DNA from: a virus
DNA length: 64,000 nucleotides
Strand: one strand, 5' to 3'
IMG/VR virus record: IMGVR_UViG_3300002143_000153
Location: 1 to 64,000 of that record
This document shows positions 8,001-38,466 of this stretch, one piece after another. The position numbers were made by a program, and so were the translations under genes. The notes beneath the pieces were generated by a model, which saw nothing but the letters and a program-made list of their open reading frames with translations, was not told the DNA's origin and did no database searches. The first letter of the stretch is position 1; each line of letters opens with the position of its first letter.

Positions 8001-11000
8001 TCTCCAATTTTTTCAGGTGATGTCTACATTAATAGATATACAGAAAAAACAATAATGCCAATATTTGCTGATTTTTTAAATGGTCAACCTAATCAATATG
8101 TTTATGATTATTTATCAAGAGTAAATATTCCTTATCCAAGATTTTGGATGGATACAAGAACTTTTGATGCTACAGCTTTAGGCAGAGACATTACAACTTT
8201 AGGCTTTTTTAGTGGAGGTGATTCTTTACCAAATGATTTATTTTATTTAGATAGAGGTAATACAAGTTGTAATCACAAGGTCTTAGGTAATATATTACCT
8301 AATATAGGTGATAAAACTGATTTAAATAAAATATTTTCTATGACTACAGCCTACATGTATACACATGTTAACGGTGTTCAAGATTTCTTTGTTGAATCAG
8401 AATATAATTTAGCTCATAGAGATTGGAAAGATGAACCAAAAGGTAGACATTATGATGCTTATGAATATACTAATGTTGATGATCTATTTCACGCGGATAT
8501 AATTAAAGAAGGTAATTTATATAATTATGATTTATCTTTAAGTATTACTAAAACAATATCTCAAGTAACATCTTTTGGTAATGTACAACCTAGAGACTAT
8601 GATCCTTTAGTTGCTGAAAATTGCTATCAGTATTATCCTAAAAGATTAATATACTCTTTACAGGCTCAAAAGGAAGCAAAGAAAGATTTTTGGAAAGTAT
8701 TCCTTGCTGATAATTATAAAGATTTTAAGAATAAAGTTAATGTAATTAAACCTATTAATAAAAGCGGAGCCATTATATTTTTTCCTTATCAATCTCCGCA
8801 AATGTTTCAAGGGGTTGATCAATTAGAAACAGATCTAGGAACTAAAATAACTCTTGGTGATGGTGGTTTATTTAGTCAAGCATTTCAAAATGTTGCAAAT
8901 TCAGATCTTTCAAATGAGTATGGTTCATCTGAGAGTGCGCGTTCTGTAGTTAATACTCCTGCTGGTATATTTTATTTATCACAAGCTCAAGGTAAAGTAT
9001 TTAATATGTCAAATCAGTTAGATAATATTGCTAATGCTGGGATGAAATGGTGGTTTAATAAATACTTACCATCTACATTAATTAGACAATATCCTGATTT
9101 AGAATTTAGTAAACTATCAGATAATCCAGTAATAGGTATTGGTTGTCAAACTATATATGATTCAAATGATGACATAGTTTATTTTATGAAGAAAGATTTT
9201 TCTGTTAAAGAAGAATTTAAAACTAATATTAATTTTGAAGATGATCAATTTGTTCTAAGACGTACTGTAAACTCTAGACCTATACCTTTAGTAATTGGAG
9301 ATTCTAATTACTTTGATAGTACTTCTTGGACTGTATCATATGATCCTAAAGCTAAAGCTTGGATATCATTCCATGATTGGTTTCCAGAATTGTCTTTACC
9401 AAGCATAAATCATTTCTTAACCACCAATACGGTTACAACAGATATACCTTATTGTCCTCCTGGTTATACATTTAATCCTGAGACTAAACAATGTGAAAAT
9501 ATAAAGAGAGAGATTATACCAGCTAAGACTACTGTACATGAAATATTATCTTCTATAAATGGCGATTGTCTTCTTGATATTGTAATAGCAATGGATGATT
9601 CAGCTAGTGTAAATTCAAATAATATATTTCAAGCACAGAAAGATTTTGTTCAAAGCTTTTTAACAAGTTCTGTTATAGCAAATGGTATGAGCGCTGGTGA
9701 TATACAAGTTGGCTTTACAAGATTTAATAGTCAAACTACAAGTAGCATGAATCCTAATGGATATAGCATGAGTAACACAGTTACACCTGCTCAGGTTGAT
9801 TTATATTATACTCCAGCTGGCGGTTTCTTTACCGAAATTTGTGATGGTATGACTCAAGCTGATATTAAAATAAAAGATGTAAATAATTCTCAATTACTAT
9901 CTAGAACAGGAGATCCAAATTTTAAATCTATATTAATAGTTATAACAAATGGTGACACTACTGAGTGTCAAGGTATACCTAGTGGAAGTAATCCTAGTTT
10001 TCCTACATTTGGTTGTAATCAAATACTAGGTCAACCTAATTATGAAATCTACGGTGTATTCTGTAGTCCAACAACACCAACATTAAATGCGGGTGCTTTG
10101 GATATTATGAATGCTATAACTTGTGGTACGCCAGAACGTCAATTAATAATTGTTTCAAATGGTGGTTATGCTGAAAATGATCCAGGCTTTGTTGCAAGAG
10201 AATTTTCAGAAACTATTTGCCCAGGTGATTGTAATTGTCCTGAAGGATACACATTAGTATACAAAAATCAGAATGGCTATTATACTGATAGTTACGGTCT
10301 TTGTGATCCTAATAATCCTCCTATCTGTAGAAAAGTAGAGTGTGAATGTGTTGGTAACTGTACACCCATAGAAACAAGTGGTGGGTGTGCTGGCTATACT
10401 GTTTATGATATAGGTGATCCAGCATATATAAATCCTCAACCTTTATTATGTAATTGTTTTACTGGAAAAACTACAGCTCCAAGTTATGAACTAAGTGGTT
10501 TATGGAGACATAACTACAGATGTGATTTATATAGTAACTACTATGATGTTGATTACCCATGGGAAGTTGAGATAATTGAAAACACAGGACAAGAAGTTAC
10601 AACTTTAAGAAGTGTTGAATATCAATTAGAATCTTATGTTTACAAAGGAGATTTACACCATGGATGTGCAGATGATAGATGGCATGATTTAGATTTCAAT
10701 TTTGATGAATCTATAATTCATAACTCAGAACAAGTTTCCGGCCTACTAAGATTGGAACTTAATCCTAAAGAAGATCCTTATGGTATGTTACAGTATCCAA
10801 TAATTGGAGCTGCTGATATGAGAATCCTTTATTCTAAAGAAGAACAAAAATATAGATTTAATCAATTTTGGGATGCTACAGAAGATAGAGGTGAATTTAG
10901 TGCAGCTGAAAGAAGTATATTTATTACACAACTAAATGGGTATATCAGAGATTTAAACGCTGCTAATTTAAACTATAACAAGGATCCATTCCAACATAAA

Positions 11001-11108
11001 AAGTTTAGACACTATTATAATAAAGTTCTTTTGAGAAGACATAAATCTGGAAATAGAAAAATGCTTCTTAAATTAGTAAACACAAAACTTAATTTATCAT
11101 TTAGATAA
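5040..11108 (+). CDS. Tail stabilisation/muzzle protein (P22 gp10-like) with vWA insertion
   Basis: N-terminal FLKGMVKD..SHARNA, YWDDGNNPSR and TVSYDPKAKAWISFHDW motifs resemble crAss-like muzzle proteins; vWA DDSAS at about 9595. Confidence 0.7.
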   Translation: MAKKNSSSQNNGSSFQNTSSVDTRVFLKGMVKDMNASYQAKESWSHARNAANNSVDGDLGLIGNEPANLACAKVPYTIIGAIHTYSDQWVLYSTDDVNSEIGLFDDSKCEYITLVNDPCLNFNKKHLIVGAAKENFDCTWQTYWDDGNNPSRTLNINDIPWKQVCTDENNVVLPGPPNYNSVGCITCVDTTDLDCEKIRIAPLVDTPCITLNKGESGGQLRNGSYQVFIAYTVNEQKVTDYIGVSNIQPLFDHNDLSGSLKITVSNLDKEFEYYELVIFSNNQNQSVAKRIGLYSTEQTDIEIDYIDQSLITVPLQLIPLRSPAYEKSDSMYVVNDYLIRQGPTEQFDFNYQSLANKIRAKWLVAEYPAAYYYKGGNKTSFMRDEQYSFFIRWIYNTGERSSSYHIPGRAPKINGRNQFGKIVDETAVNIGTDSLANDEMNFQIYNTATETATGLVKPTGDGGIIIAKGDMAYWQSSEKYPATRPDIWGNLCGKYIRHHKMPTEEISANLQISTTNGTTIRLLGVEFENIAPPLDNNGDLITNIVGYEILRGSREGNKSILAKGIFRNMRTYNIPDGGQTLGNTTGLYPNYPYNDLRPDVYFHDGNADPDTHRTDGCNTFFESVRDYKPLTGYKKDYFTFHSPELMFRRPFLSAYETRIYGELDGQSVGHFIKSENHPQNKLLRNSAAVLGGAIGIGYAINQVQGTRQFNYNGPKLAAPFPLGVDPVSYGLALITLNAVGVATTVVDTVLDVLLSEAADIASIVDGGTFAFASTQGKAISDFALGGTPGMIGGSKDEIYTFDNPTSNLPKIFKLILGVAIGAVNIGIGAQEIIDLIYNQADEDDFAFKYNSHGFYDQFTTRGINKRFRTKNKSSNFIKNTFQEFEGYKVNNLFRPMTVAIATEQTLEDPTIVDKSRYTIGGDADNDFGNTYLRNPDQEQTKNISVIYGALKYNFKNQYGQLDGIKQIQMRGCVELIDVKRKQDKFVSSPIFSGDVYINRYTEKTIMPIFADFLNGQPNQYVYDYLSRVNIPYPRFWMDTRTFDATALGRDITTLGFFSGGDSLPNDLFYLDRGNTSCNHKVLGNILPNIGDKTDLNKIFSMTTAYMYTHVNGVQDFFVESEYNLAHRDWKDEPKGRHYDAYEYTNVDDLFHADIIKEGNLYNYDLSLSITKTISQVTSFGNVQPRDYDPLVAENCYQYYPKRLIYSLQAQKEAKKDFWKVFLADNYKDFKNKVNVIKPINKSGAIIFFPYQSPQMFQGVDQLETDLGTKITLGDGGLFSQAFQNVANSDLSNEYGSSESARSVVNTPAGIFYLSQAQGKVFNMSNQLDNIANAGMKWWFNKYLPSTLIRQYPDLEFSKLSDNPVIGIGCQTIYDSNDDIVYFMKKDFSVKEEFKTNINFEDDQFVLRRTVNSRPIPLVIGDSNYFDSTSWTVSYDPKAKAWISFHDWFPELSLPSINHFLTTNTVTTDIPYCPPGYTFNPETKQCENIKREIIPAKTTVHEILSSINGDCLLDIVIAMDDSASVNSNNIFQAQKDFVQSFLTSSVIANGMSAGDIQVGFTRFNSQTTSSMNPNGYSMSNTVTPAQVDLYYTPAGGFFTEICDGMTQADIKIKDVNNSQLLSRTGDPNFKSILIVITNGDTTECQGIPSGSNPSFPTFGCNQILGQPNYEIYGVFCSPTTPTLNAGALDIMNAITCGTPERQLIIVSNGGYAENDPGFVAREFSETICPGDCNCPEGYTLVYKNQNGYYTDSYGLCDPNNPPICRKVECECVGNCTPIETSGGCAGYTVYDIGDPAYINPQPLLCNCFTGKTTAPSYELSGLWRHNYRCDLYSNYYDVDYPWEVEIIENTGQEVTTLRSVEYQLESYVYKGDLHHGCADDRWHDLDFNFDESIIHNSEQVSGLLRLELNPKEDPYGMLQYPIIGAADMRILYSKEEQKYRFNQFWDATEDRGEFSAAERSIFITQLNGYIRDLNAANLNYNKDPFQHKKFRHYYNKVLLRRHKSGNRKMLLKLVNTKLNLSFR

Positions 11109-14100
11109 TGTATAAAAAATTTCAACAGCAAGAATCAAGAGGTTTACCTGGGGGACCTAATGAAATGTTTAGTTATGTAACAGGTGTATTCTCTATGGAT
11201 GGCTATAAGAGTGACTCACCGGATGTAAACAATCCTTATAATATTATACCTTCTGGTAATATAACAATGAAGGGTGTAGACTTTCCTGTTCATGGTACAG
11301 ACAACTATGGAAATCAAAAGATGATGTATCCAGGAAATGATTATAAGTTTCCTGGGGACATGGTGTTTGAAACACCTATGGCTCAAAATGGTATTGAAGT
11401 ACCTAAAAGACAAGGTGCTAGAAAAAATCCAGATGGTACTGAGTCTACTCATCTTATGGCTACTGAAACTTTAGATGGTAAAAATTGGGTTTCATTTCCA
11501 ACATTATTTCAAGATCCTGATGGTACTTGGATTGATATGTCTGATAAGCCATGGGAAGAAGCTTATGAAGAAGCTAAGAAGAGAGGTGAACTTATAGATT
11601 TTGGTACAGACAAAGAAGCTGCAATTAAGTTTGGGGAAGGTTCTTGGAAACCTAAGATGAAACGTGGTGGTGCACTGTTGAATAAAACTATGAAATGTAA
11701 CAACTGCGGTTGGTCATGGAAAGCTGCTGATGGTGGAGCTGATGTTAATACTTGTCACAAATGTGGAGGTGAAGCTTTAATCAAAGCTCAACCAGGTGTA
11801 GAATTAACAAGAAACGGTAGACTTCAATACGATAAACCTGATCCAAACGCTACATACAAGTCACCTTCTTATGAAGAATATTCTAATTTAGTAAATAAAG
11901 AAAAAACCAAAAAGGTTGAAACAATTGCTGATAGACAAAAATTAGAAAAACAAATATCAAATTATAATATTAGAGGAGAAATAACAACAGATGGTTCAGG
12001 TCAAAAATTTCAAAAACAACAAAAATTAGCAAAAGATAAACAAGGTAATTTAGTTATAAATGAGTATTTAATTAAAGTTGATGATAAACCTCTTGCTTTT
12101 AATGATTCTGGAAATAGTCCTATAAATAGAGCATTAGCTTATCCCTATGTATACGCTAGTGAAAGAACAGGAACTACTGACTTTTTTAAAGGTGATCCTG
12201 CTTATGATGCAGCTAGTAAACAAGGATTAGGCGCTTCTATGATGGATGGTTTATCTTTAATGTCTCCCTATGCTTGGGATTATTCTTTAGGTAAGGTAGG
12301 AACTAATAATCAAAGTGCTTATTCAAGTGGTGATGAATTTATTACAGACATTGCTTTATCTGGTCCTGCATCATTAGCCGGTAACTTAGTTAAAAAAGGA
12401 ATTAAACCTGTAGCTAAAGAAATACCTTCGCTTATGAATAAAGGTAGAGGTATGTTAGATAATGCAGCAGAATATGTTGTTAATCAAAGACCTGCTTCTG
12501 GTAATAATTTTGATTTAGAAAAACTTAGAAACATATATCATAATTCTCAAAGATATTTAGAACCTCAAGAATCAAGATTTTTACATAAAAAAGGTTATGG
12601 TAAACAATCCCAATATAGAAATAGGTATGATGGTACCACTGTTACAGATGAACAAGTAGATGAATTCTGGAGAATTAGAGATGCTAATCAAAATCAATTA
12701 TCACAAATACAATTAGATTTAAGAAGACATGCTCAATATGATGCAGATTTATTAGCTGATGATTATCAAAATCTTATTGCTGGAAGACCTGCTGTTAACT
12801 ATCCTAATTTAGATATAACATCTAATGAATTGCAACAACATATGTTAACTCAGCGTGAACAATACCTAAATACTCAAAGAACATGGCAAACTTTACAAAA
12901 TACACCTCAAACCCCTCTTAAACCAAAAACTCCTATTAATAAATCGGGTTTAACTAAAGATGAAGTATTACAAAAAGCATCACCTAAAGATAAAGATGGT
13001 ATTTCTAAAATGTCTGAAGCTGAATTTGAAAACACTGTTCTTAAACCTAATGGAGAAATAACCCCTTATTATTCGGGTTCTTTGGAAAAACAATTTAGCG
13101 GTTCTCAAAATGTAACGGCTTTATCTCCAAAACAATATACAGATGAATTTAATTCAAGATTAGATTTATTAAATGATATTATTGCTCAAAAAAATAAATC
13201 AGGTGTAGAATATAGAGTTAAGGGTTTAGATGAAAACGGTAGATTAACTTTTTATACACCTGAGCAATCTATACCTGCAAAATTAACAAATGACCAAAAA
13301 GCAACTATTAAAGCATTTAATAAAGATCCTAAAGATTATCTTATAAATCAAGCTGGTTTAGAACAAAAAGGAAATAAATTTAGATTACCTTGGGGATCAG
13401 GAAGCTGGGGTACTGAATTTAATAGTATAGAAGAAGCTATTGAACTTGCAAGAAATGAAATGAAACCTTTTACTAAACCAAAAGTAATATCTGGAGAATC
13501 AACTTGGAGAACTACATTAAATCCTGGCCAATGGAGAGGTGACGTTGAGGATATAGCAAATACAGAATACTTTAGAAGTATTCCTGGTTTAGAAATGTAT
13601 GATACTACGCCTGGAGTATTTGCAGATAATGTAGCAAGAAAAGGTACAGGTGCTTATGAATCTATAAATGAATATCTTAAAGCATTAAATTTAGGTAGAG
13701 TAAAACCAGGATTTAATTCTCAAACTGAATTTTCAAGAGGAGCTTGGGAAAACTTTATTAAATCAGGAAGAGGTGTAGGATTTTATGCTAATCCAAGAAC
13801 TGTATATGGTACTATGAAAACGGCAATACCGTTAACAGGTGTTGGACTTGGAGCATATTCATTATCAGATCCTAATTTTAAATCACCGTTAAATCAAAAA
13901 CAATATGGTGGTGAAGAAACAAATCCATCATTTGATTCTTGGTATTCAAGATATGCTAAAGCTACAGATAATTCTACTAACCCATATGATAAAGAACATT
14001 ACTATGATTATGAATCATTCTTTAATGATAACATAAGTAAACCTGAAAATTTATATCCATTAGATACAAGGGATTGGCATCTGTCTTCTAAATATAAAAA

Positions 14101-15973
14101 AGAGGGTCACCCAAGATTATATGAATATCCTGATGGCACATATGGTGAAAACTATATAGAAGGTGCTAAAGACACAAGAGAGTTTCAAAAAGGTGGTAAT
14201 GTAAGATACACAAGTAATCCTAATGATAGAGGTATAAAAGCTTATGCTGATAGTTTAGATTTGTATAATGAGTATATGGATTTTTACAACCAAGCATTAA
14301 ATACAAATGCAGGAACAAGAGAGCAAGTAGCAAGAAGGTATGGGATTCAAGCTGTTCCTAATAGAAATAATTTATTTAATTTGACTGGATATGATCCAAA
14401 TCTAGTTTTTTCAGATAATAGTTTAACTCATGGTCCTATAGCGGCTTATCCAAATAATAATAGCGTAAACCCAAATATTTTACCCATCGCTGCTAGAAGT
14501 TATTCAGATGTAGATAACGCATTAATTTCTCCTTTTTTAGCAGAGTATAAAAAACCAGTACAACGAGTAAAATACCGTGATCCTGAAATAGTGGCAAAAC
14601 AAAAAGAACTAATTGCCGCAGGTTATGATATAGGTGCAGCAGATGGTATTTGGGGTCCTAAATCTCAAGCTGCTTGGGAACAGACACAAAAAGAAATTGT
14701 TAACTTAAAACCTAATGTTGTTGAACCTACAACTAAAAAAGAATATTCTAGATTTGTAAATATACATGGGAAAAATTATGGCTTTAATAATCAAGAAGAA
14801 TTTTTTAATATAGCAAAAAGTAAAAATATGCCTAAAGGTTGGGCAGAAGCTAATGTTCCAAAAAATTTAGAGTTTCAAAAAGGTGGTGAATATAAAGTTA
14901 AAACAGGAGATACTTTTTATGGTATTGCTAGTAAAAATAAAATAACAAAACAAGCGTTACTAAAAGCTAATCCCGGATTAGATATACAAAATCTTAAATT
15001 AAATCAATTAATTAAACTTCCTACACCACCACCTGCACCAAAACCTGTAGCAGAACCTGTAAAACCAAAACCTCAAGAAACAGCATGGAGTGATTATATC
15101 AATCCTATGAACTGGGGTGTAACTGATAGAGATGATGATGGTACTTTTAGACAAGCATTTAGAGCAGCAAGAGTTGATGGTGACGATGAGTTTATGTGGT
15201 ATGGTAAAAGATATACTACAGATCTTGTAGAAAAAGAAATTAAAAAAGAAACTACAAATGTACCTTTAAAACCAAGTAGTTTTTTACCAACATATTTTAA
15301 TGATATTAAACAAATTGAAAATGCTGAAAAGAAAGGTTGGGATTCTGAAAAACAAAAATGGTTTCCTTATGAATCTTTTGAAGATCCTAAAAGTTTTGAT
15401 ATAGGTTATGGTCATAAAATAAAAACAGGTGAAGATTATTCAAAAGGACTTACAGAAAAAGAAATTTTAGCATTAATAAAAAAAGATTTTAATGAACATG
15501 AAAAATTAGCTGCACATTATATTAATAAAACACATGGTGCTAATACTTGGGCTAATTTAAATTCTTATCAAAAAACATTATTAACAGATACACAATATAA
15601 TGTAGGAAGTCTTGGAGAATTTCCAAGTTTTTCAAAAGGTGTAGTTAATAATGATAAAGAAACTATGTTGAAAGAATACAAAAGATACACTGATGGTAAA
15701 CCATTAGGTAGAAACAAATGGATTCTAGAAACAATAAATGATTATATAGAAAGTGATCAATTCCAACCTATTAAAAAACAAGCTGGTGGTGAAACAGAAA
15801 TGCTTTCTATGTATTCAGATTACATGATGGGTAAATATGATGGCACAGACACGGAAGAAGTTGGTAAAAAGATATATGATAAAATGAATAGACTTTATTA
15901 TAAACAAGCAAAACAAGCAGGAGTAACTGTTCCTAATTATATAATGACTAATATTATTAGGCAAACAGCATAA
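11108..15973 (+). CDS. Multidomain virion cargo protein: Zn ribbon, GNAT-like, PG-binding, LysM and lysozyme-like domains
   Basis: CNNC..CHKC; QKELIAAGYDIGAADGIWGPKS (PG_binding_1); YKVKTGDTFYGIA..ANP (LysM); E..DIGYGH..YNVG (GH24-like lysozyme). Confidence 0.75.
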   Translation: MYKKFQQQESRGLPGGPNEMFSYVTGVFSMDGYKSDSPDVNNPYNIIPSGNITMKGVDFPVHGTDNYGNQKMMYPGNDYKFPGDMVFETPMAQNGIEVPKRQGARKNPDGTESTHLMATETLDGKNWVSFPTLFQDPDGTWIDMSDKPWEEAYEEAKKRGELIDFGTDKEAAIKFGEGSWKPKMKRGGALLNKTMKCNNCGWSWKAADGGADVNTCHKCGGEALIKAQPGVELTRNGRLQYDKPDPNATYKSPSYEEYSNLVNKEKTKKVETIADRQKLEKQISNYNIRGEITTDGSGQKFQKQQKLAKDKQGNLVINEYLIKVDDKPLAFNDSGNSPINRALAYPYVYASERTGTTDFFKGDPAYDAASKQGLGASMMDGLSLMSPYAWDYSLGKVGTNNQSAYSSGDEFITDIALSGPASLAGNLVKKGIKPVAKEIPSLMNKGRGMLDNAAEYVVNQRPASGNNFDLEKLRNIYHNSQRYLEPQESRFLHKKGYGKQSQYRNRYDGTTVTDEQVDEFWRIRDANQNQLSQIQLDLRRHAQYDADLLADDYQNLIAGRPAVNYPNLDITSNELQQHMLTQREQYLNTQRTWQTLQNTPQTPLKPKTPINKSGLTKDEVLQKASPKDKDGISKMSEAEFENTVLKPNGEITPYYSGSLEKQFSGSQNVTALSPKQYTDEFNSRLDLLNDIIAQKNKSGVEYRVKGLDENGRLTFYTPEQSIPAKLTNDQKATIKAFNKDPKDYLINQAGLEQKGNKFRLPWGSGSWGTEFNSIEEAIELARNEMKPFTKPKVISGESTWRTTLNPGQWRGDVEDIANTEYFRSIPGLEMYDTTPGVFADNVARKGTGAYESINEYLKALNLGRVKPGFNSQTEFSRGAWENFIKSGRGVGFYANPRTVYGTMKTAIPLTGVGLGAYSLSDPNFKSPLNQKQYGGEETNPSFDSWYSRYAKATDNSTNPYDKEHYYDYESFFNDNISKPENLYPLDTRDWHLSSKYKKEGHPRLYEYPDGTYGENYIEGAKDTREFQKGGNVRYTSNPNDRGIKAYADSLDLYNEYMDFYNQALNTNAGTREQVARRYGIQAVPNRNNLFNLTGYDPNLVFSDNSLTHGPIAAYPNNNSVNPNILPIAARSYSDVDNALISPFLAEYKKPVQRVKYRDPEIVAKQKELIAAGYDIGAADGIWGPKSQAAWEQTQKEIVNLKPNVVEPTTKKEYSRFVNIHGKNYGFNNQEEFFNIAKSKNMPKGWAEANVPKNLEFQKGGEYKVKTGDTFYGIASKNKITKQALLKANPGLDIQNLKLNQLIKLPTPPPAPKPVAEPVKPKPQETAWSDYINPMNWGVTDRDDDGTFRQAFRAARVDGDDEFMWYGKRYTTDLVEKEIKKETTNVPLKPSSFLPTYFNDIKQIENAEKKGWDSEKQKWFPYESFEDPKSFDIGYGHKIKTGEDYSKGLTEKEILALIKKDFNEHEKLAAHYINKTHGANTWANLNSYQKTLLTDTQYNVGSLGEFPSFSKGVVNNDKETMLKEYKRYTDGKPLGRNKWILETINDYIESDQFQPIKKQAGGETEMLSMYSDYMMGKYDGTDTEEVGKKIYDKMNRLYYKQAKQAGVTVPNYIMTNIIRQTA
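14179..14887 (+). repeat. Exact 19-bp direct repeat AGAGTTTCAAAAAGGTGGT (EFQKGG) at 14179-14197 and 14869-14887
   Basis: Read directly; the copies are 690 bp apart, in frame, and flank a PG-binding module. Confidence 0.9.
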
Positions 15974-15979
15974 TTTTTA

Positions 15980-15993
15980 GTATATTAATAGTG
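15980..15993 (+). promoter_or_regulatory. Putative phage late-promoter motif
   Basis: GTATATTAATAGTG 4 nt before ATG 15998. Confidence 0.55.
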
Positions 15994-15997
15994 TATC

Positions 15998-17779
15998 ATG
16001 AAGTCAAGAAAATTAAATAAAACACCAATGTATCAAGAAGGTGGCTCTTTAAATAAGGCATCTTCAAACATTGCTGTTGAAGAACTTGTACGTGAAGTAC
16101 AACAAAGAATAGAATCAGGAGAACCTCCTGAACAAGTGCTTTTATCTTTCTTACAAGAAGGTGTAGCACAAGAACAATTGGGTATTGCTTTTGAAAATCT
16201 TGGTTATGACCCAGCTGCATTTACAGATTTAATGATGGGTGCAGAACAAATGGTTCAAGCTCAACAGCAGCAACAACAACCTCAACAAAGCATGATACCT
16301 GAAAATCCTATACCACAAGGATTTGAAGCTCCTGAAGGTGAACAACCTATAATGCAAAGAGGTGGTTCTACACCTTTATATTTACCACCTATTCCAAGAA
16401 AAGGTAACATAGCAAATGCAGCTTATTGGCTTAATGATGCTATTGGAACTGGTATGGATACTGTAAATAATTGGGATACTGATAAAGCTAAGTATAAAGA
16501 AAAACAATTATCTAATAGATCTTATGAAGTTGATTTTAAAGGTAATGATTTAAAAAATTATGTACCTACTTGGGAAAATTTAGCTTCAGGTAAAATAGAT
16601 ACAAAGAAAGAATTTGAAGATAAAGTAAAGCAGTATAGCAGGCTTAGTTTTGATCCGGGTACAAATCAGTATGCAAATGATTTAATGTGGTCTGAAAACC
16701 AGGTTAAAACGCGTTCTGAAGATCAACTTAAAGGTACAACATCACTAAAAGATTTTATGTCTAATGTATCTGGTTATAGTCAAGAAGATAAAGATATATT
16801 AAGAAGTGCAACTCAGGCACCTAAAGATACAATATTAGGTTATGATGATAATGGTTATCTTGTATCAAAAGATGCAAGTAGTCTTACACCATCTCAACGT
16901 GAAGAAGAAACTAATATTTATAAGGATATACAATTAGGTAAAAGAAAAATAAATAATTCTCAAACACCAAGTCAATCTAATACACCTATATTTGAAATAC
17001 CTGAACGGAATATGCTGCAAGCACCTTCTTCAAATTATGAGTTTAGATACGGTGGTGATTTACCAAAAGCTGAATTTGGACCACCTCATTTATTTAATCA
17101 AAATCAAACTAAAAAACCTACATTTCAAGAATGGGTTTTAGAAGATCCTGTAACAAGAGGTACTGCATCAAGTAAAGATGAATATAATAAATTATATCCT
17201 GAAACTTTTGATTTTTCAGGTCCAACAGATAATTCACTTTCAATGAGTGATCCTGAAGTTACAAGAAAAAGAACTTTAGGAAATGCTTATAATCAAGTAG
17301 AAACTTTTATAAAAGATAATCCTGGAATGAAAGCTTTTGGTGATATATCAAACGGTCTTGTTATGGGTGCAAATCTTGCAAATGAATTTTTTCAACAGAA
17401 CAAGTTTGATGACTATAAAAATGATTTTAGAAATAGTACAATAGCTGATAAAACATATTCTACTAATACACCTCCAGATGCAAGAGGTAATTGGGATCAG
17501 TATGGTTTTACAAATGTTCAAAAATTTACACCTAATATGTCTCAAGCAATGTATGGTAGTGAAATGTATAAGGCTGGTGGTGCGTTTGAACCACACATGA
17601 TGTATGATCCTAGAACTAAAGAAAGTTATAATGCTAATCAAAAAGAAGATCATTTAAGAATGGCTGAGATGGGTTATTTGCATCAAAATGAAATGTATCA
17701 AGAAGGTGGTGAAATGGAAGTTGATAACGATACTCTTATGGCATTAATAGCTGCAGGAGCAGATTTAGAAATATTATAA
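15998..17779 (+). CDS. Virion cargo protein with repeated xQxGG motifs
   Basis: MYQEGG x2, MQRGG, FRYGG, KAEFG, MYKAGG; Q-rich; lies between the muzzle and RNAP genes. Confidence 0.55.
   Translation: MKSRKLNKTPMYQEGGSLNKASSNIAVEELVREVQQRIESGEPPEQVLLSFLQEGVAQEQLGIAFENLGYDPAAFTDLMMGAEQMVQAQQQQQQPQQSMIPENPIPQGFEAPEGEQPIMQRGGSTPLYLPPIPRKGNIANAAYWLNDAIGTGMDTVNNWDTDKAKYKEKQLSNRSYEVDFKGNDLKNYVPTWENLASGKIDTKKEFEDKVKQYSRLSFDPGTNQYANDLMWSENQVKTRSEDQLKGTTSLKDFMSNVSGYSQEDKDILRSATQAPKDTILGYDDNGYLVSKDASSLTPSQREEETNIYKDIQLGKRKINNSQTPSQSNTPIFEIPERNMLQAPSSNYEFRYGGDLPKAEFGPPHLFNQNQTKKPTFQEWVLEDPVTRGTASSKDEYNKLYPETFDFSGPTDNSLSMSDPEVTRKRTLGNAYNQVETFIKDNPGMKAFGDISNGLVMGANLANEFFQQNKFDDYKNDFRNSTIADKTYSTNTPPDARGNWDQYGFTNVQKFTPNMSQAMYGSEMYKAGGAFEPHMMYDPRTKESYNANQKEDHLRMAEMGYLHQNEMYQEGGEMEVDNDTLMALIAAGADLEIL
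16027..17709 (+). repeat. Exact 18-bp direct repeat AATGTATCAAGAAGGTGG (MYQEGG) at 16027-16044 and 17692-17709
   Basis: Read directly; brackets most of the 593-aa ORF. Confidence 0.85.
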
Positions 17780-17781
17780 TA

Positions 17782-20379
17782 ATGGCAAAAATTAAATTAA
17801 ATAGTTTACCACAAGGCTTTGAAATAAAAGATGGTAAAGTAATGAAAAAAATGAAGCAAGGTGGTATGACTGGTGATCAATCTGGTTATGGTTTGACCAC
17901 AACAACCTCTTCTTATGGTAGCGGTAGTTTTAATAATGCTGAGGATAATAAAAATGTTAGATATTCATTATCTTCTGTGCCTAAAGATATTGCCAATATA
18001 GAAGCTGAAGGTGGAGAAACTGTACTTACAGATCTTAATGGTGCTGGTAAGTTTGGTCTTTATGATATCAAAGGACCTAGACATTCTAAAGGTGGTGTAC
18101 CAATGTTTTTACCTACAGGTGCTTTTATTTTTTCTGATACCGATGCAATGAAATTTGATAGAAATGAACTTGCTGAATTTGGTGTTGAATCTAAAAAGAA
18201 AATAACACCAGCAAAAGTTTCTAAAAAATATCAGTTAAATGAATTTATAGGAGCACTTGCTGATGAGGATGCTGATTCTATAAAGGTGAAAAGTGCTGAG
18301 TTAATGTTAAATAAAAACATGATGGGTTTATCTAAAGTTGCATTTGCTCAAGAAGCAAAAAAACAATTTTCAGATGGTTTACCTAAAGCTGCATATCCTT
18401 ATATAGTATCTAAAGGTCAAGATCCTGAGCAGATGTCTCAACAAATTGAGGCAAGGAAAAATGAACAAAATGTAATGAATGCTATTGGAGCATTACCACC
18501 TGAACAACAAGCTAAAGCTATGGCTTTAAGACAAATGATGGGTGATCAAAATTCACAGGGTATGGAGCAACCTATGGCTCGTGATGGTTATGAATTACCA
18601 AAAGCTCAACTTGGTCTTGGCAATCCATTGGATATTTTTAATTATGGTAGAAACGTTTGGAACCAAAACAAACAGGGGTTAGTGAATGAATTATATAAAG
18701 ATAAAAGTAAACAAATTGATCCAAAAACATATAATCCAAGTTCAAGTTACGGTTCTAGTTTTTTAGAGGCAAATAAAGCTTTGTCAACAAATAAAGGTTT
18801 TATACCTTATAGATTAGATGACAATGGTGATTATCCAGTTTATGCTCAACAAGCTATTCAAAATGAAAATGCAGCAGCAAGTTCAAAAGCTAATGCAGAA
18901 CAAAATATGAATGCTGCAAATGCAGCAACTACAAAAAGACCTGTAGTAACAGCAACTAGTTCAGACGATAAATCAAACATAGCTTATAGTCCTAAAGTCA
19001 AAGATTTTTATAATAGATTTAATATAAATGTAAATGATGTAGGTGTAAATGCAACTACTTATAAAGACGTACAAGGTTATCAAGGTGAAGGTTTGTATGG
19101 TGATGCCGCTTCAAATTTAGAAGGTTGGAAAAAATCATGGTCCCCTTTATATCCAGATGCAGATAAATTAATACAGTCTTTACCTAAGTATGGAAAAGGT
19201 GAAAAAAATCCTGAAGTAGTAAAGTTTCAAAAATGGCAAGATGAAAATTATATACCTGAAGAAATGGCTAGGATTAAAAAAACCTGGGAAGATGAAGGTA
19301 ATATTTGGACACCTGAATTACAAGGTTCTTTAGAAAAAGCATTTAAGAAAGATTTTGGATTTGATCCAAATGCAACAGGTAAAGACTATGATGGTTTTAT
19401 GGGTACATTTACATCAAGTAGAAGACCATGGGATACTCAAGGTAATCCAAAAACACAAAATACTCCTGATGATTCAAACATAAATATAACACCTGAAGAT
19501 CCTAATTATTCATATGTTGATCCAGCAAAAGATTTCTGGATGCAAGATTATATTAAAATGGGAGCACAAGCTCAAAGAGATAGAGCTTTGTTTACACCAT
19601 GGCAACCCAATGTAGAGATACCTCAAATTGATTATATTCTTGAAGATCCTACAAGAGCTCTTGCTGATACTAACGAACAACTAAATATAGCAGGTCAAGC
19701 ACTAGGTGCTTTTGCTGGACCTCAATCATTAAGTGCAAGATTATCACAGGCTCAAGGTAATGCTTTTAAACAAAACGCTAATACTTTTGCTCAAGTACAT
19801 AATAGAAATGTAGGTACTGTTAATCAAGCTTTGGGTCAAAATGCTCAGTTAAGAGCTGTTGCTCAAAGAGAAAACAGAGATAGACAGGTTAAACAGTATG
19901 ATGATACAATGCTAACTTTTCAAAACTACTTAGATGAAAAAAATGTAGATAGAGAACAAATGGCTGATCTTAGTGCTAATGCTTATACAAATATGGCTAA
20001 TACTTATAATATGAATACATTGTATCCTTATTATAATATTAATCCTAATACAGGTGGTACAGTTGATTGGAATGGTGGTGCACCTCCAATGATTGCTAAT
20101 AACCAAGCAGGTAACCAAATGGATTTATATGATCAGATGACTCAAAGAGCTATTGATTTAAAATCTAAAAATTTAGATGCGGGTACTATAAATTTAATAT
20201 TGAATAATACTTATGGTACACCAGCACAGGCACCAACTCAAAAGTCTGCTTATCCAAATGCGGATAGTCTTAGAGCACATAGACAACAAGGTATGTCTGG
20301 TGGTTATGGTATTAGTAAATCAGGTAAAGAAATAAAACCTTATGCTACACCATTTTATATAGGAAAAACATTTTTTTAA
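17782..20379 (+). CDS. Virion cargo/ejection protein
   Basis: IEAEGGE...HSKGGV domain, MKQGG/MARDG/KAQLG motifs, N/Q/A-rich helical C-terminal half. Confidence 0.55.
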   Translation: MAKIKLNSLPQGFEIKDGKVMKKMKQGGMTGDQSGYGLTTTTSSYGSGSFNNAEDNKNVRYSLSSVPKDIANIEAEGGETVLTDLNGAGKFGLYDIKGPRHSKGGVPMFLPTGAFIFSDTDAMKFDRNELAEFGVESKKKITPAKVSKKYQLNEFIGALADEDADSIKVKSAELMLNKNMMGLSKVAFAQEAKKQFSDGLPKAAYPYIVSKGQDPEQMSQQIEARKNEQNVMNAIGALPPEQQAKAMALRQMMGDQNSQGMEQPMARDGYELPKAQLGLGNPLDIFNYGRNVWNQNKQGLVNELYKDKSKQIDPKTYNPSSSYGSSFLEANKALSTNKGFIPYRLDDNGDYPVYAQQAIQNENAAASSKANAEQNMNAANAATTKRPVVTATSSDDKSNIAYSPKVKDFYNRFNINVNDVGVNATTYKDVQGYQGEGLYGDAASNLEGWKKSWSPLYPDADKLIQSLPKYGKGEKNPEVVKFQKWQDENYIPEEMARIKKTWEDEGNIWTPELQGSLEKAFKKDFGFDPNATGKDYDGFMGTFTSSRRPWDTQGNPKTQNTPDDSNINITPEDPNYSYVDPAKDFWMQDYIKMGAQAQRDRALFTPWQPNVEIPQIDYILEDPTRALADTNEQLNIAGQALGAFAGPQSLSARLSQAQGNAFKQNANTFAQVHNRNVGTVNQALGQNAQLRAVAQRENRDRQVKQYDDTMLTFQNYLDEKNVDREQMADLSANAYTNMANTYNMNTLYPYYNINPNTGGTVDWNGGAPPMIANNQAGNQMDLYDQMTQRAIDLKSKNLDAGTINLILNNTYGTPAQAPTQKSAYPNADSLRAHRQQGMSGGYGISKSGKEIKPYATPFYIGKTFF

Positions 20380-20437: not shown

Positions 20438-23400
20438 ATGGCAACATACGTACCAGGATACCAAAGATATGAAAGAGAAACAAAACCGTTTACTCCAGAT
20501 TATAAATTTCTATCTGCAGTCCTAGACACTAGACAAGACCGTTTTGATACTAACTATAAACAACTGAATGATCAATACAGTAAAGTTGTTTATGCGGATA
20601 TGTCAAGAGAAGATACAACAAACGCAAGAGATCAATATACTCAACAGCTTATACCGAGGATGGAAAAACTATCAGGTATGGATTTGTCTATACGTCAAAA
20701 TGTAGATTCTGCAAAAAGTTTATTTAAACCTTTTTATGAAGATGATCTTATTGTAAAAGACTTGGTGTTTACATCGCAGTATAAAAAAAATATGCAGCTT
20801 GCAACAATACTTAAGGATTCTGATAGTGCTGATGAAAGAAAAAAATACTGGACAACAGGAATACAAGCTTTAAATTATCAGATGAAAGACTTTATGTCAG
20901 CTGATAGAGACACAGCTTTAAAGTCAGGTTTACCTTCTTATGTAGAGAATGTAGATCTTGAAGCAATGTCAATGAAGATTTTAACAGATGCTGGTTTTAA
21001 AGATGTTATAATGGATTTACCCGTTAAGGAAGGTGATCCTTTTGTTATTAGACAAAAAAATGGATCTCTTCAAGTACCTGGCGCATATAACTATTTAATG
21101 AAAACTCTTATGGAAGATCCAAGAGTTATAGAAGCTTATAGAACAAGTGGTTTAGTTCAAGCTAGAGGTCATGCAGAAACAGGTGTAGAAAACGGATTAT
21201 ATTCTAATATAGCTGAAGGAAAAAATGCATGGGCCCAAAATACACTTAATGAATTAAGAAATAGAAATGCTATAGCAAATCCAATATTAAAACAACAATT
21301 TGAAAAAGCTTTAGAAGCAAAACAAAATTGGGAACGTTATGAAAAAGAGGAAGGTATTATACCTGATAGTGATGAACATAAAGATTTATTAGAAGCTTTT
21401 GAAAAATTTGATAATGCCGAAGGTATTTTAAAAAGAAATGAAGAAGCTTTGCAAAGAATGGATTCTGTTGATGAAAATACAGATTCTTTAAATTTTGCAT
21501 ATAATATGCTTATGAATTATAATCTAAGTAGTGATATTTTAGGTGCTGCAACTTCATATAGTAAAAGAGATTATTCTCAAACTATAGCTATGGAAAATCC
21601 ATACACTAAAATGAAAATTCAACATCAGTATGATATTGCTAGAGATAATAATGCCAGTGCTAATAAAAAAAGTGAAGCTATATTACAAGGTAAGATTGAT
21701 GGTAATGTAAATAAAAAAGGTGAAATAATTAATCCTGCTTATTTAGCAGCTGAAATATTTAATGATGATGCAGGTCCTGATGATTTTAGTACTGAGTATG
21801 AAGATGTTGAATTAATAAAAGATCCTTATAAAAGAAATTTAGAAGATGTTGATACTAATGCAAAAGTTATAGCTGGACAACAAGCAGATTGGATTAATAA
21901 TTTTCTTACTTTAAAAAATTCAAGTAAACGTGTAGGTGACCAAAATGGTAATATGACAATTACTTTAGCTAATAATAAAAAGTTTACTGGTAACACACAA
22001 CAAATAAAACAAGAGTTAATAAAACCAGAAAATGTAAATGTATTAGCTAAACTTTATTCTGAGTCTTTTAAAGAATTTACAGAGTTACCTAAAACTAATA
22101 GACAAGCTCTTAAAAGTATAGAATATGTTACTTTAGCTGCAGATGCTAGTGAGATTGCAGGTAGGACAGATCAAATACTTGCCTGGAATTCTATAAGTAA
22201 ACAGCAAGTTAAAAAAAATTGGGAAGCTGCTAAAAGTATAGGTGCTTTACCTTTAGGTAGAGCTTTAGAAAAAGGCGTACCATCTATAGTAGATGATAAA
22301 GGTGAGGTATCAGATGAAAATGAATACGTTACAAATTATGTTAATTCTGCAAAAGAAGGTAAAATAAAAGGGGCTAATTACATGGTCGGTAGAGGTGGTA
22401 GAATGGATGATGGTTCAATGCGCTATGAAGGTGCTTTATCAATCGGTGAAGCAGTCAGTAGACGTATTGATAAATACACGGGTGATGTAATTTTTGATAA
22501 AACAAACGCTACAAATGATGCTAAACAAGCATATAAAGATCAGTATAAAATATTAAATAATACTTTAAATGAAAACTATACTGCAAGATATGATACAAAA
22601 AATACAGGTTTATTTCAAGCTTTATCTGCAGATGCTTATTTTAGAAATGTACCATTAGATGAAATGAATGCCGCCAATCTTTATACTTATGGTGGTACAA
22701 AAACAACATTTAATGTTGCTACTATTACTAGTGATGAAAAAGCATTTAAACAATTAAAAGCATTTAGGAATCAATTTATTAATACGCCTAGTGCTGATAA
22801 AATAATTATACCTACAGGTGTATCTTCCGCAAACCCTGATAAAGAAACAGATCCTACTGCTGATTATATTTTACGTCAAACTTTAAATGATATACAAAGA
22901 GCAATGCTTCAATCAAAAAGTGAAGCAAGTAAAAAATTATTAGTTGGTATTGAATATAGACCTGTTGCCGGAGTAAGTGAAGATGGTACTAAGTATGCTG
23001 GTTTTAAAATTAGTTTAACTGATGATCAATTAAAAGCTTTTACATCTGATGCGGCTAAGACACCAGCGGGTAAATTGAATAATGATGCTATTAAAGACTA
23101 TAGTGAAATAACCATGTTGTATAAACAAGAATTAGATACTAATCCTTTAAGAGCTGGTCAATACAATTTTTCTAGTACTCAAACAAAAATACAATTATCA
23201 GAAGATAATACTTATCATTATGATATGTTTAAAGAAACAGCTGGTTCTTTTAGAATCTTTAATAAAGATGATGTTTATTATAGATCAATGGAAATGTTGC
23301 AAGTTGATCCAAAAACAGGTAACTTTGTATTAGCGGGCCAACAAGCTATACAACCTATATTAAATCAAAATAATCAACCTGTTACTATTAATGAACTAGA

Positions 23401-23497
23401 TAGATATATTGCAAACTTTGAAGCAAGTTTTGCTGATTTACATACAAAAAATATGGTTGATGTTACCAGAATAAAAAAACAACTTGGAATAAAATAA
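20438..23497 (+). CDS. Large virion cargo protein preceding the RNAP
   Basis: 1019-aa helical ORF; position matches the first of the large ejected proteins of crAss-like phages. Confidence 0.5.
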   Translation: MATYVPGYQRYERETKPFTPDYKFLSAVLDTRQDRFDTNYKQLNDQYSKVVYADMSREDTTNARDQYTQQLIPRMEKLSGMDLSIRQNVDSAKSLFKPFYEDDLIVKDLVFTSQYKKNMQLATILKDSDSADERKKYWTTGIQALNYQMKDFMSADRDTALKSGLPSYVENVDLEAMSMKILTDAGFKDVIMDLPVKEGDPFVIRQKNGSLQVPGAYNYLMKTLMEDPRVIEAYRTSGLVQARGHAETGVENGLYSNIAEGKNAWAQNTLNELRNRNAIANPILKQQFEKALEAKQNWERYEKEEGIIPDSDEHKDLLEAFEKFDNAEGILKRNEEALQRMDSVDENTDSLNFAYNMLMNYNLSSDILGAATSYSKRDYSQTIAMENPYTKMKIQHQYDIARDNNASANKKSEAILQGKIDGNVNKKGEIINPAYLAAEIFNDDAGPDDFSTEYEDVELIKDPYKRNLEDVDTNAKVIAGQQADWINNFLTLKNSSKRVGDQNGNMTITLANNKKFTGNTQQIKQELIKPENVNVLAKLYSESFKEFTELPKTNRQALKSIEYVTLAADASEIAGRTDQILAWNSISKQQVKKNWEAAKSIGALPLGRALEKGVPSIVDDKGEVSDENEYVTNYVNSAKEGKIKGANYMVGRGGRMDDGSMRYEGALSIGEAVSRRIDKYTGDVIFDKTNATNDAKQAYKDQYKILNNTLNENYTARYDTKNTGLFQALSADAYFRNVPLDEMNAANLYTYGGTKTTFNVATITSDEKAFKQLKAFRNQFINTPSADKIIIPTGVSSANPDKETDPTADYILRQTLNDIQRAMLQSKSEASKKLLVGIEYRPVAGVSEDGTKYAGFKISLTDDQLKAFTSDAAKTPAGKLNNDAIKDYSEITMLYKQELDTNPLRAGQYNFSSTQTKIQLSEDNTYHYDMFKETAGSFRIFNKDDVYYRSMEMLQVDPKTGNFVLAGQQAIQPILNQNNQPVTINELDRYIANFEASFADLHTKNMVDVTRIKKQLGIK

Positions 23498-29500: not shown

Positions 29501-32500
29501 AGGAGCTAATTCAAATTTTGAAAGAAATTCTACAGATGTAAAAAGAATAGGATTAAGCATTGATAAAAAAATCAATGATGGTAAAACATCTAATGAGATT
29601 ATACAAGAATTAGCAGCTCAAGGAATTGTGGCTATGACTAACACACTTGATAGATTTAGGGAGTTTATATCAGATAGACAATCTGGTAAAACTACACAGA
29701 CTTTTGAAGAGTGGTATAATGAAACAGTTTCTGAACTTGATGCAGAACTTGATGCAGAACTTGATGCTTTAAATACTAATACAGAACAAACTTCTGAAAC
29801 ATTAAGTTTAGAAGATCAAATTAAAAAGCTTGAGGGTAGAAAAAGTATTTTAGATAAGCAGATTAATGATGAAGCAAAAGCACAAGGTGTTAATAGATAT
29901 AATTTAAAACAAGGCTCTGAGGAATATCAACAACTTGATTCTGAAATTAAAAATTTAAAATCTCAACGTAAAAATGCTTTCAAAATAGTTAATACACCAG
30001 AAGCATTAGCTGAAGATTTAAAAATTGATGACTTTATTAATTGGGCTAAAAGAAACTTACCTGATTTTATTCAAATAGTTGATATAGCTGAATTAAAAAA
30101 TAAACTAAAAGCTAATGGTTATACTGCAGGTCAGTTTACAATGGCTTTAAGAAATATTGCTGGTGGTGTAGAAGTAAGCGGTACTATATACACAGGTCCT
30201 TCAAGTATGATTGCTTACCATGAAGCTTTTCATAGTGTCTTTAGAATGCTGCTTACAGATGAAGAACAAACTAAATTATTAAAAATTGCTAAAGATGAAG
30301 TAAGAGCTAAGTTTAAAACACCAGAAGCTTTAATGGAAGACATGTTGCAATTTCAAACTCTTAGCCCTTTATATAAAAGCATGAGTCTTAAAAGACTTGA
30401 GCGTGAATATCTAGAGGAATATATGGCTGATGAGTTTGCTAAGTTTAAACAAAATCCTAGAAGTACAAAAACATCTTCTATAATTAAATCCCTATTTAAT
30501 AGAATAATAGAATGGATTAAAGCAGCATTAAAACGTTATAGTAAAAATGAACTTATCAATGTGTTTGAAAACATTGATGCTGGTAAATACAAAGGTGGTG
30601 CTGTAGCAGATAACTTTTATACTAAAGATTTAGATGGTGATATTACTATTGAAGCCTATAAAGCAATTCCATATGAATCAATTAATGGTGAGCTATTTGC
30701 TTCTGAATTATTTTTAGATCCTGCAACATCTGATTTATTAATAAGAATGATTGCTAATACATATCTAGAAAGAGTTAGTAAAGCAAAGACTAATATTGAA
30801 GAAAACAAAGTTAAAGATCAACTTTCAAATTTATTAAGCAAGTATAGCAAATTAAATGATGAAGATCAAACTGAAGAGATTACATCTGAAAAAGTTTATA
30901 TAGGCGCTGTTATAGCAGATTATGCTGATTTGTATTATCCGGGTAGAGATATCTATAATGGAGATAAATTTAGTGATTCTCAAGCTGAAAAATTAGAACA
31001 AATTTATAAAGCTTTAACTTTAGATGATGGAGAAAAAGTTGCTGATGAAGTAGCAGATTATATTTCTTTATTTGATATGAAGTTTGAAGAAATAAATAAT
31101 GAAATAGATTATCTTGAAAATTCAATTGGTAGTAGAAGTGTAGACCAATATGGTAGAGAAAATCAAGAGATAGGTATTCAACCCAGTAAAAAAATTAGAC
31201 TATATATTGCATCAACAATAGTAACTTCAAAAGACATGTTTGGTAATACTGAATTGCTTAATGGTGAACCCATAAAAGTAGCTGTTAAATACCAAGATGT
31301 ACACAATGGTTTAATGCTTGCTGCAATGAATGAGATAGATCCTTTTAAAATGATTACAAGAATGTATTACCATTCAAGAAGATCTTTAAATACAGCAGCT
31401 GTACTTGATAGATTTTTAAATGATGTTGGTATCATAAATGGGTCAAGATCTATGAGTGATGTTATTGATTCAGGTGAATTACCTACGGATATTAAAGATA
31501 CTTTATTATATCATGAGTTTATAAAAACTTATAAAAATAGTAGATTTGATTATGCATTTCATTTAAAAGATAAAAAATTAGGTAAAGCAATTATTATTTC
31601 AGCATCTCAATCAGATGCTGCTACTGCGCAAATAGATTCTTGGAAAAAATTCCATGGAGATAAGTTTGAATTATTTAAACAAAATGATAAAGCCTTGAAC
31701 CAAGCTGTTTCATCTTTAACTTTACTATCTAAAACATTAGGTAAAAATAAGATTACTAATAAGGAGTTATCTGCATTAGCTGATTCTTTATCAAAGAATA
31801 TTTTTGAAGACCTTGGTATAAGTTTTAGCCGTGGTTTCTTAGAGGTAAGCATTTCTTCTTCTATTGTTAACAAGAAAAAATATCAAAAAAACTTAACGGA
31901 AGTTGGTGAAAACATAAGACTTATTACTAAAGAAGATGCTTTGCAAATGTTACTTGCCTTACGTGTAAAAGTAACATCAGACGTAGGTTCAAAAATTGTT
32001 AAATTTAGACCTGAAAATTTATTTGTAGATGTTGAAGGTAAAGGAGTAAGTTCTAGATTAATGTCTTTAGCTTTAGGTAACGCTCATTTTGATGAAGCGA
32101 TTGGAGCTACTGTATTTACAGATGTTAATGATAAACTTATATACGCACACCAACATCAAACATATCATTCAAGAAGAATAGCTCAGTTAAATAGTGAAAC
32201 TTTTTTAACTGAATTAGTTGAAGAAAATGCATTTCTAGAAAAAAATATTCTTACTGATAACTTGGCTTTTAGACAAATGGCCAAAGATAAAATGCTTGCA
32301 ATTACTAGAGTTTCTGGTACTAAAAATGCAGATCTTTCAAATAGTCAAATTGATAATTTATCAGATGCAGCATTAAAAGAAGAAGGTGTTACTTATGGTG
32401 ATATGAGTTCTGCTGAATTTATAAATACACTTGTTGATTTATATGTACAATCTTTTAATACTAAAAGTGAAACTAATGAAAAAATAACTTATAAGAATGA

Positions 32501-38465: not shown

Positions 38466-38466
38466 C

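Follow-up and report, generated by a model that had tools for sequence, protein, structure and literature searches.

A recurrent Gly-Gly peptide marks the borders of exchangeable modules in probable cargo proteins of a marine crAss-like phage

Large modular proteins that enter the host together with DNA have been described in several phage systems. The polyvalent proteins of phages and conjugative elements are large proteins, encoded by phages, in which unrelated enzymatic and binding domains follow one another; they enter along with DNA and show extensive mosaicism (Iyer, Burroughs, Anand, de Souza, and Aravind 2017, PMC5512222). Processing by zincin-like peptidases is predicted in that paper, which names no site, describes no junction motif, and contains the terms linkers, glycine, and crAss with 0 occurrences each. 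In Bacteroides phage ΦcrAss001, gp45 is the cargo protein C1 (Bayfield et al. 2023, PMC10172136; Pfam PF25725, crAss_CARG1); its gene lies after the muzzle gene and before the genes of C2 and the RNA polymerase (RNAP)-associated proteins, and gp45 is thought to be ejected first. Here we analyzed the first 64,000 nucleotides (nt) of the IMG/VR record IMGVR_UViG_3300002143_000153 (hereafter the window), which come from an uncultured, low-GC marine crAss-like phage. Three contiguous open reading frames (ORFs) of the window, with no small gene in between, are in the same position: c1621 (1621 amino acids [aa]; 11108..15973, directly after a muzzle-like gene), c593 (593 aa; 15998..17779), and c865 (865 aa; 17782..20379), 3079 aa in total. 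These ORFs, their seams (see below), and the neighboring virion genes are on the plus strand. The three proteins are probably carried in the particle and injected, and they are punctuated by a short peptide, which we call the seam. Like the polyvalent proteins, c1621 joins several unrelated domains in one polypeptide (LysM, peptidoglycan [PG]-binding, lysozyme-like, and Zn ribbon). Modular injected proteins are already known as a concept, from polyvalent proteins and from crassvirus cargo, whereas the seam peptide is undescribed in the literature searched.

In its Gly-Gly form, the seam consists of a hydrophobic residue or Lys, then Gln, Lys, Arg, or Tyr, then any residue, and then two Gly. 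It is often continued by x-LPKAQ-x-Gly, a second half-motif that is very strong in relatives of the phage. Searches of the literature, whether on the LPKAQ string or on the cleavage of crAss cargo, retrieved no description of it. The Gly-Gly form is present five times in c1621, at aa 183-188 (11654..11671), 930-935 (13895..13912), 1025-1030 (14180..14197), 1255-1260 (14870..14887), and 1556-1561 (15773..15790). It is also present five times in c593, at aa 11-16, 118-123, 348-353, 523-528, and 566-571 (16028-16045, 16349-16366, 17039-17056, 17564-17581, and 17693-17710), and once in c865, at aa 23-28 (17848-17865), after an N-terminal hairpin. A sequence-only reading of the window had proposed that a recurring motif punctuates these genes, and all the instances it listed were indeed found in place. 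The enrichment over shuffled sequences that it expected was confirmed for the Gly-Gly form: the 11 copies in 3079 aa compare with an expectation of 0.85-0.92, and 11 or more were reached in 0 of 5000 shuffles. Elsewhere in the window, 30 further ORFs with 16,905 aa together contain between one and three. The total of Gly-Gly dipeptides in the three proteins is not raised (19 versus 18.2 expected), and 11 of these 19 have the common upstream context. Since the dipeptide total is ordinary, it is the upstream context that is special.

The looser single-Gly pattern, as written in the sequence-only reading, was only weakly enriched (19 versus 12.0; reached in 178 of 5000 shuffles), and the other ORFs of the window contain 37 matches to it. 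Two of these, KAKFG and YAEDG in the region of about 38430 and 38640, had been included in the proposed system and look like chance. In contrast, six single-Gly instances are real, being degenerate copies of the half-motif PMAxxG or x-LPKAQ-x-G. The degenerate second-half sites are at c1621 aa 90-103, a bipartite single-Gly seam (PMAxxG plus x-VPKRQG; 11375..11416) that ends the N-terminal block; at c1621 aa 224-230; at c593 aa 355-361 (LPKAEFG; 17060-17080), after the 17039-17056 seam; and at c865 aa 264-278, a bipartite seam (18571-18615) at the end of the first folded domain.

The motif was also enriched in six relatives taken from viral contigs (L001-L005 and L014). Their cargo ORFs contain 43 copies of the Gly-Gly pattern (7.2 expected), 28 LPKAQ-like pentapeptides (0.2 expected), and 20 cases of both together (0.0 expected). 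The flanking muzzle, C2-like, and RNAP ORFs of the same relatives (15,634 aa) have three Gly-Gly matches, 0 LPKAQ matches, and 0 bipartite ones. In the alignment of the c865 family, three positions of the second half-motif are at least 90% conserved. The seam is specific to marine crAss-like cargo encoded between the muzzle gene and the C2-like and RNAP genes.

Alignments with orthologues revealed that modules are inserted, deleted, and exchanged precisely at the seam, and that the seam marks exchangeable modules. L001 and L002 have a module of about 225 aa, bounded exactly by two seams, that is absent from c593. Also absent is a second insert, which starts with a bipartite seam and in L002 also ends with one. 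The Zn-ribbon module of c1621 (aa 189-230; 11672-11797), closed by the half-motif LIKAQPG, is an insert between two seams, and L001 has a single seam at this place. The close relatives of c1621, which are 84-98% identical to it, are mosaics that break at the motif. Of these, the database protein P0124 is about 98% identical over the common parts, but three modules (96-188, 936-1030, and PG-binding) are missing from it; the flanking seams are joined, with three residues in between, and the seam at aa 930-935, a block boundary, is a junction in this protein. In P0125/P0126, the 936-1030 and PG-binding modules are almost letter for letter the same as in c1621, and past the seam at aa 1255-1260 another module replaces LysM. 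The homology of c1621 to the JGI contig L084 is divided into the blocks 1-95, 182-223, 928-1055, and 1156-1618; the blocks therefore start or stop at seams. When the BLAST block ends of 38 family members were collapsed, 148 of 2031 were at most 5 aa away from a seam versus 42.7 expected, a descriptive figure, as block ends are not independent. The cell-wall-degrading catalytic module behind LysM varies as well: it is lysozyme-like in the window (15098-15790), an SLT transglycosylase in L001 (4873-9960), and a YkuD-type domain in L002 (1801-7974), L004 (100-6018), L005 (3-4454), and L014 (1-5094). Thus, the earlier idea of expandable module strings delimited by the motif was well supported by the gain and loss of whole modules.

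The modules of c1621 are arranged in the order N-terminal module, 96-188 module, Zn ribbon, long central part, small 936-1030 module, PG-binding module, LysM, lysozyme-like module, and C-terminal helices. The sequence-only reading had placed the motifs exactly between self-contained modules. The labels Zn ribbon, PG-binding, LysM, lysozyme-like, and C-terminal helices were supported, but the motif does not delimit every module, as about 700 aa (231-929) are without any seam. The 'GNAT-like' label given to one module was not sustained, with neither a Pfam hit nor a match to PDB sequences by phmmer. The Zn ribbon is supported by four Cys between two seams, the first of which (aa 183-188) is directly before the module. 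The seam at aa 930-935 marks the start of the 936-1030 module, and the one at aa 1025-1030 is between this module and the PG-binding module, a region that was also supported. LysM, detected with Pfam at aa 1262-1305, begins one residue past the seam at aa 1255-1260. The lysozyme-like part showed a T4-lysozyme-like fold (probability of 0.92-0.99 to GH24 endolysins, with weak E-values), and phmmer returned no match of this part to PDB sequences. The seam at aa 1556-1561 stands before the conserved C-terminal helical module (15791-15970), and these helices were supported, too.

In line with these borders, an AlphaFold model of c1621 aa 880-1621 has short dips of the predicted local distance difference test score (pLDDT) below 50 exactly at seams, at aa 1255-1259 and 1556-1560. 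They are the sole such dips in the better-predicted part of the model, the first 167 residues being too poor to judge the seams at aa 930-935 and 1025-1030. The AlphaFold2 model of c865, made from a 72-sequence alignment, has a mean pLDDT of 67.6. It places a hairpin at aa 13-22, followed by the seam at aa 23-28, which opens a low-confidence stretch (aa 24-59); the first folded domain covers aa 60-255, and the bipartite seam at aa 264-278 is tied to the next low-confidence stretch (aa 256-394). Foldseek and VIA-align searches with this model retrieved generic helical matches only. According to the models, the seam lies in short stretches predicted to be disordered, at the edges of modules that are predicted to fold independently.

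Is the seam conserved as peptide or as DNA? In the window, there are exact DNA repeats of 18-19 nt at two seam pairs, one of which flanks a whole module; among them is the seam at 14180..14197, which shares a 19-nt exact repeat with 14869-14887. Furthermore, 21 of the 22 seam Gly codons of the window are GGT, versus 71% elsewhere. In the six relatives, however, the seam Gly codons follow the background mix and the peptide is unchanged. The seam is conserved as a peptide and not as DNA, and a general DNA-level constraint is ruled out, since the codons vary in the relatives. Of 120 c865 homologues, with identities as low as about 40%, 119 retain the seam at aa 23-28 (the c865 family comprises at least 1349 unnamed proteins).

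A mini-module of c593, which we named FEPH, separated the seam from the module it borders. Including its closing seam, it covers aa 529-571 (17582..17710) and is bracketed by two seams. Its His- and Met-rich core of about 35 aa (aa 529-563; 17582-17686) begins with FEPHMMYDP and ends with GY-T/L-H. This core is near-invariant in more than 40 distinct proteins of differing length and architecture, encoded on marine viral contigs (L006-L080), most of which are not crAss-like. Such conservation across unrelated proteins suggests a strongly constrained partner or a metal site. Among 12 motif-rich cargo ORFs with FEPH, 11-12 had seams flanking it, compared with only 1-2 of 34 other phage ORFs, one of these being a truncated cargo ORF. 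Based on these counts, the seam is a requirement of the cargo context and is not carried by the module.

Because its flanks are conserved and FEPH is seam-flanked in the cargo context, we infer that the seam is recognized by something. The reading we tentatively favor, at not quite an even chance, is that it is a system-specific junction tag, an uncut handle or hinge that is read in a partly unfolded stored state. The cargo would be stored partly unfolded in capsid and tail and extruded linearly, and a common virion partner, or the channel itself, would read the seam. The Gly-Gly hinge would let each module unfold and refold separately, and the conserved flanks would provide a uniform handle. 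Due to hinge and handle, any module between two seams, be it a cell-wall enzyme, a binding domain, or a small effector, would stay packageable and ejectable. Recombinants joined at seams would survive, because a break inside a seam would give an in-frame functional chimera, and the cargo genes could become expandable cassettes.

The structural argument for an uncut seam comes from ΦcrAss001. Given the gene order of the window (muzzle-like protein, three cargo ORFs, a 1019-aa ORF, and a giant RNAP protein), the place of C1 (gp45) in ΦcrAss001 is the place of the three cargo ORFs. The gp45 protein (L081:11988-14516) contains seven aromatic-x-x-Gly-Gly sites, a kind of site absent from gp46, gp47, gp49, and gp50; the structural paper (PMC10172136) makes no reference to the motif. 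Sites 204-210 and 258-264 flank the tail-barrel helix 214-245, while sites 422-428 and 556-563 flank the portal-bound domain 425-552; both segments were resolved by cryo-electron microscopy. The seam residues 425-428 are inside the continuous modeled segment 425-552 and inside the Pfam PF25725 domain (424-555). Since model and Pfam domain both start on the seam, a cut after Gly428 of gp45 is argued against. A few similar sites are also present in gp080 and gp081 of phage phi14:2. The proteins differ in several respects: the gp45 motif is of a different flavor and lacks the LPKAQ half, gp45 is a single 842-aa protein in comparison to three ORFs of 3079 aa in the window, and no cell-wall enzyme modules were detected in it, unlike in c1621. 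BLASTP of the window proteins against gp45 and gp46 gave nothing significant. PF25725 had no match in the genome of the window at E ≤ 10 and none in the Pfam scan of the three ORFs, and hhalign of the c865 family profile against gp45 423-556 gave a probability of 0.4. In virion gels of ΦcrAss001, bands of 85, 100, 150, 270, and >300 kDa were seen, together with only two small bands. Overall, we consider constitutive protease sites less likely than seams that, for the most part, stay intact in the virion.

Several points weigh against the uncut handle. As gp45 has no detectable homology to the window proteins, the structural argument is one by analogy; a cut just upstream of the gp45 seam would also fit a model that starts at residue 425, and which of the gel bands is gp45 could not be read. 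That co-packaged noncargo proteins do not avoid the motif (5 matches versus 4.0 expected in 25,570 aa) speaks for uncut seams, but the test has little power. The conservation is stronger N-terminal of the Gly-Gly, as in protease sites, and two N-terminal pieces, 16 and 28 aa long and resembling leaders, have a seam at their end, as a protease site would give. Finally, lambda and T5 have tail-lumen proteins that undergo cleavage at a module border, by means that are unknown.

Polyprotein processing is a serious rival, although we consider it rather unlikely. The sequence-only reading had put forward a protease cleavage site or a capsid-loading tag, and the present data neither establish nor eliminate either of the two. 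If processing occurred, the seams would be cut at the Gly-Gly or beside it, be it in the course of assembly, inside the capsid, or once the cargo has been ejected. Such cuts would free the LysM-lysozyme part, the PG-binding module, and small effectors, and would remove N-terminal leaders and C-terminal docking helices. The seam is a short linear motif in exposed linkers that directly abuts the next module, and the residues after the Gly-Gly are small or acidic, as would suit a cleavage site. A cut would also simply explain why gp45 segments are found on both sides of the ΦcrAss001 portal. By contrast, the segment 425-428 of gp45 is contiguous with 429-552 in the model, the large RNAP-associated proteins of ΦcrAss001 appear on gels at full size, and its virion gels contain the 85- and 100-kDa bands and few small ones. 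Furthermore, the conserved unit extends up to about 15 residues on both sides of the Gly-Gly, which exceeds most protease sites, and the absence of avoidance in co-packaged proteins, at low power, also speaks against cutting. A C-terminal Gly-Gly in 19 of the 120 c865 homologues (among P0061-P0123) was considered as a sign of cutting and was rejected: it is part of a different conserved tail (PF-aromatic-x-GK), in which the hydrophobic residue is one position further upstream and from which the window copy differs.

Processing would require an enzyme, which could be the HExxH domain of the co-packaged giant RNAP protein, an unrecognized phage protease, or a host enzyme. Models of Peptidase_S78 (HK97-type prohead protease), C39, C48 (Ulp1 type), and ClpP had no match in five relatives that are 94-100% complete, in a screen that did not extend to the T4-type S77 family; the record to which the window belongs is itself about 82% complete. 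The sole protease-like candidate seen was the zincin-type HExxH site at aa 2240 of the giant protein (30219..30233). Its surroundings matched no Pfam peptidase, and MPTase-PolyVal (PF18818) had no match in the genome. The ESM clusters nearest to this region (aa 2150-2400; 29949-30701) carry the polyvalent-protein-associated domains LPD23 and LPD1, which is a lead only. Zincin processing is in fact expected in the literature, for polyvalent proteins (PMC5512222) and for the crAss RNAP polyprotein, whose cleavage was anticipated in the crAss RNAP paper with a pointer to the zincin and no site named. The giant protein also has one site that resembles the motif (aa 2365), some 125 aa past HExxH; as a single site it is compatible with chance, and the alignment to phi14:2 was too weak to put a fusion junction there.

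Precedent for cutting is given by proteins of the tail lumen, a set comprising lambda gpH (converted to gpH* and gpHC), T5 pb2 (converted to pb2* and pb2C), and T4 gp5. Such proteins reside in the tail lumen and leave the particle before the DNA does, as the window cargo probably does, too. Some of the set have muralytic modules, with a cut that falls on a module border within or close to a stretch rich in Gly. In lambda gpH, about 14 kDa are removed from the C-terminal region, which is Gly-rich, and the cleavage site and protease are unknown (PMC12617516). T5 pb2 is cut between a hydrophobic stretch and the muralytic motif by an unknown enzyme, and pb2C is stated to comprise its last 92 residues (PMC12617516). 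The similarity to lambda pointed out in the sequence-only reading holds as a sequence fact: two aromatic-Ala-Thr-Gly-Gly sites of gpH (L088), aa 731-737 and aa 776-782, directly follow the Gly-rich tract to which its cut is assigned. In T5 pb2 (L089:12122-15781), the last 92 aa start two residues before its only C-terminal Gly-Gly, so that the cut would lie there if pb2C has this length. A resemblance between the N-terminal part of c1621 and pb2C was not significant (E 0.12 in a tiny search). Unlike the repeated seams of the window, lambda and T5 have a single cut per protein, which serves as tape measure, and no module shuffling has been described for them.

A broader version of processing, which we regard as unlikely, is a Crassvirales cargo-processing code. 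According to it, a virion-borne protease would cut C1-type polyproteins at hydrophobic-x-x-Gly-Gly seams, so that each phage would inject a customizable set of separate effectors, and the tape-measure cuts of lambda-like phages, beside similar aromatic-Ala-x-Gly-Gly sites, would be the same chemistry. The protease would be the conserved zincin of the RNAP-associated protein or one of a new kind, acting in assembly or after ejection. A Gly-Gly with a conserved upstream hydrophobic residue is common to the seams and to substrates of adenain/Ulp1-type (clan CE) proteases and C39 double-glycine leaders. In the seam, this residue is one position further upstream than in the adenain consensus. The clan CE and C39 systems have a cognate cysteine protease, whereas the five relatives have no C39 or C48 match. 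Likewise, systems of the T4 gp21, phiKZ gp175, and HK97 gp4 type have a prohead protease gene, in contrast to the lack of S78 and ClpP matches in the same relatives.

Junction peptides that border exchangeable modules are also present in polymorphic toxins, where VENN of CdiA and DPxGL of Rhs are reportedly such motifs (described by Zhang et al. in 2012). Like the seams, they are short conserved peptides at the border of swappable modules, with cassettes exchanged by recombination. DPxGL of Rhs is also an autoproteolytic site. Polymorphic toxins have one variable C-terminal toxin and an immunity gene, whereas the window cargo has many internal seams, mostly cell-wall enzymes and small domains of unknown function, and no immunity genes.

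It is very unlikely that the seam is a passive linker, i.e., a tolerated flexible joint that has no partner, stays uncut, and is copied by recombination between seam-coding stretches. Such copying would be in line with the exact 18-19-nt repeats at two seam pairs, with the loss of exactly seam-bounded modules in the 98%-identical P0124, and with the predominance of GGT in the seams of the window. However, the codons of the relatives vary freely while the peptide is constant, the c865 seam is retained in nearly all homologues, and FEPH has seams only in the cargo context. In addition, there is conservation of the LPKAQ half and of the positions taken by hydrophobic residues and by Gln/Lys, for which a simple hinge would have no need. 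The chance that the motif is an artefact of composition, a loose pattern matched by any Gly- and Lys-rich protein, is next to nil: the loosest pattern is weakly enriched and the outlying matches near 38430-38650 are of that kind, but the shuffle counts in the window and the relatives refute a chance origin of the Gly-Gly and LPKAQ forms, and alignments show the seams at conserved positions.

The virus record to which the window belongs has 93,957 bp. Upstream of c1621, it encodes a muzzle-like virion protein of 2022 aa with a VWA insert (5040-11108). The cargo ORFs are followed by the 1019-aa ORF (20438-23497), which has no seam motif. Its nearest ESM-feature clusters include crassvirus cargo protein 2 (crAss_CARGO2; score 0.91), which serves as a lead only, and it had no match to the Pfam model PF25712. 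The giant RNAP protein (4987 aa; 23502-38465) contains the RNAP motif DFDID at aa 3785. PF25710, PF25711, and PF25713, which represent other crAss or N4 families, gave no matches, and neither c593 nor c865 had a tblastn match among 50,697 phage records.

Two further sequence elements were noted in the cargo families. Nearly all c1621-family proteins have a GLPGGPNE element within their first 20 residues (window 11108-11160; P0124-P0159), a Gly-Gly context that is distinct from the seams. The c865 family has a conserved beta-rich element, an EAEGGE turn followed by GPRHSxGGVP (c865 aa 60-116; window 17959-18130), and pieces of it recur where the giant ORF ends and where a 609-aa YkuD ORF starts (38380-38520).

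If the seams were cut, this would constitute a new virion processing system and might explain the cleavage of tape-measure proteins, the basis of which has long been unknown. A uniform seam peptide would be an experimental handle and possibly a route to engineered phages that deliver chosen proteins. The crAss-like phages, which rank with the most abundant viruses known, load and inject protein in megadalton amounts. Such a seam would provide a simple criterion for proteins that are suitable as cargo, and the unannotated modules between seams could be read as injected effectors.

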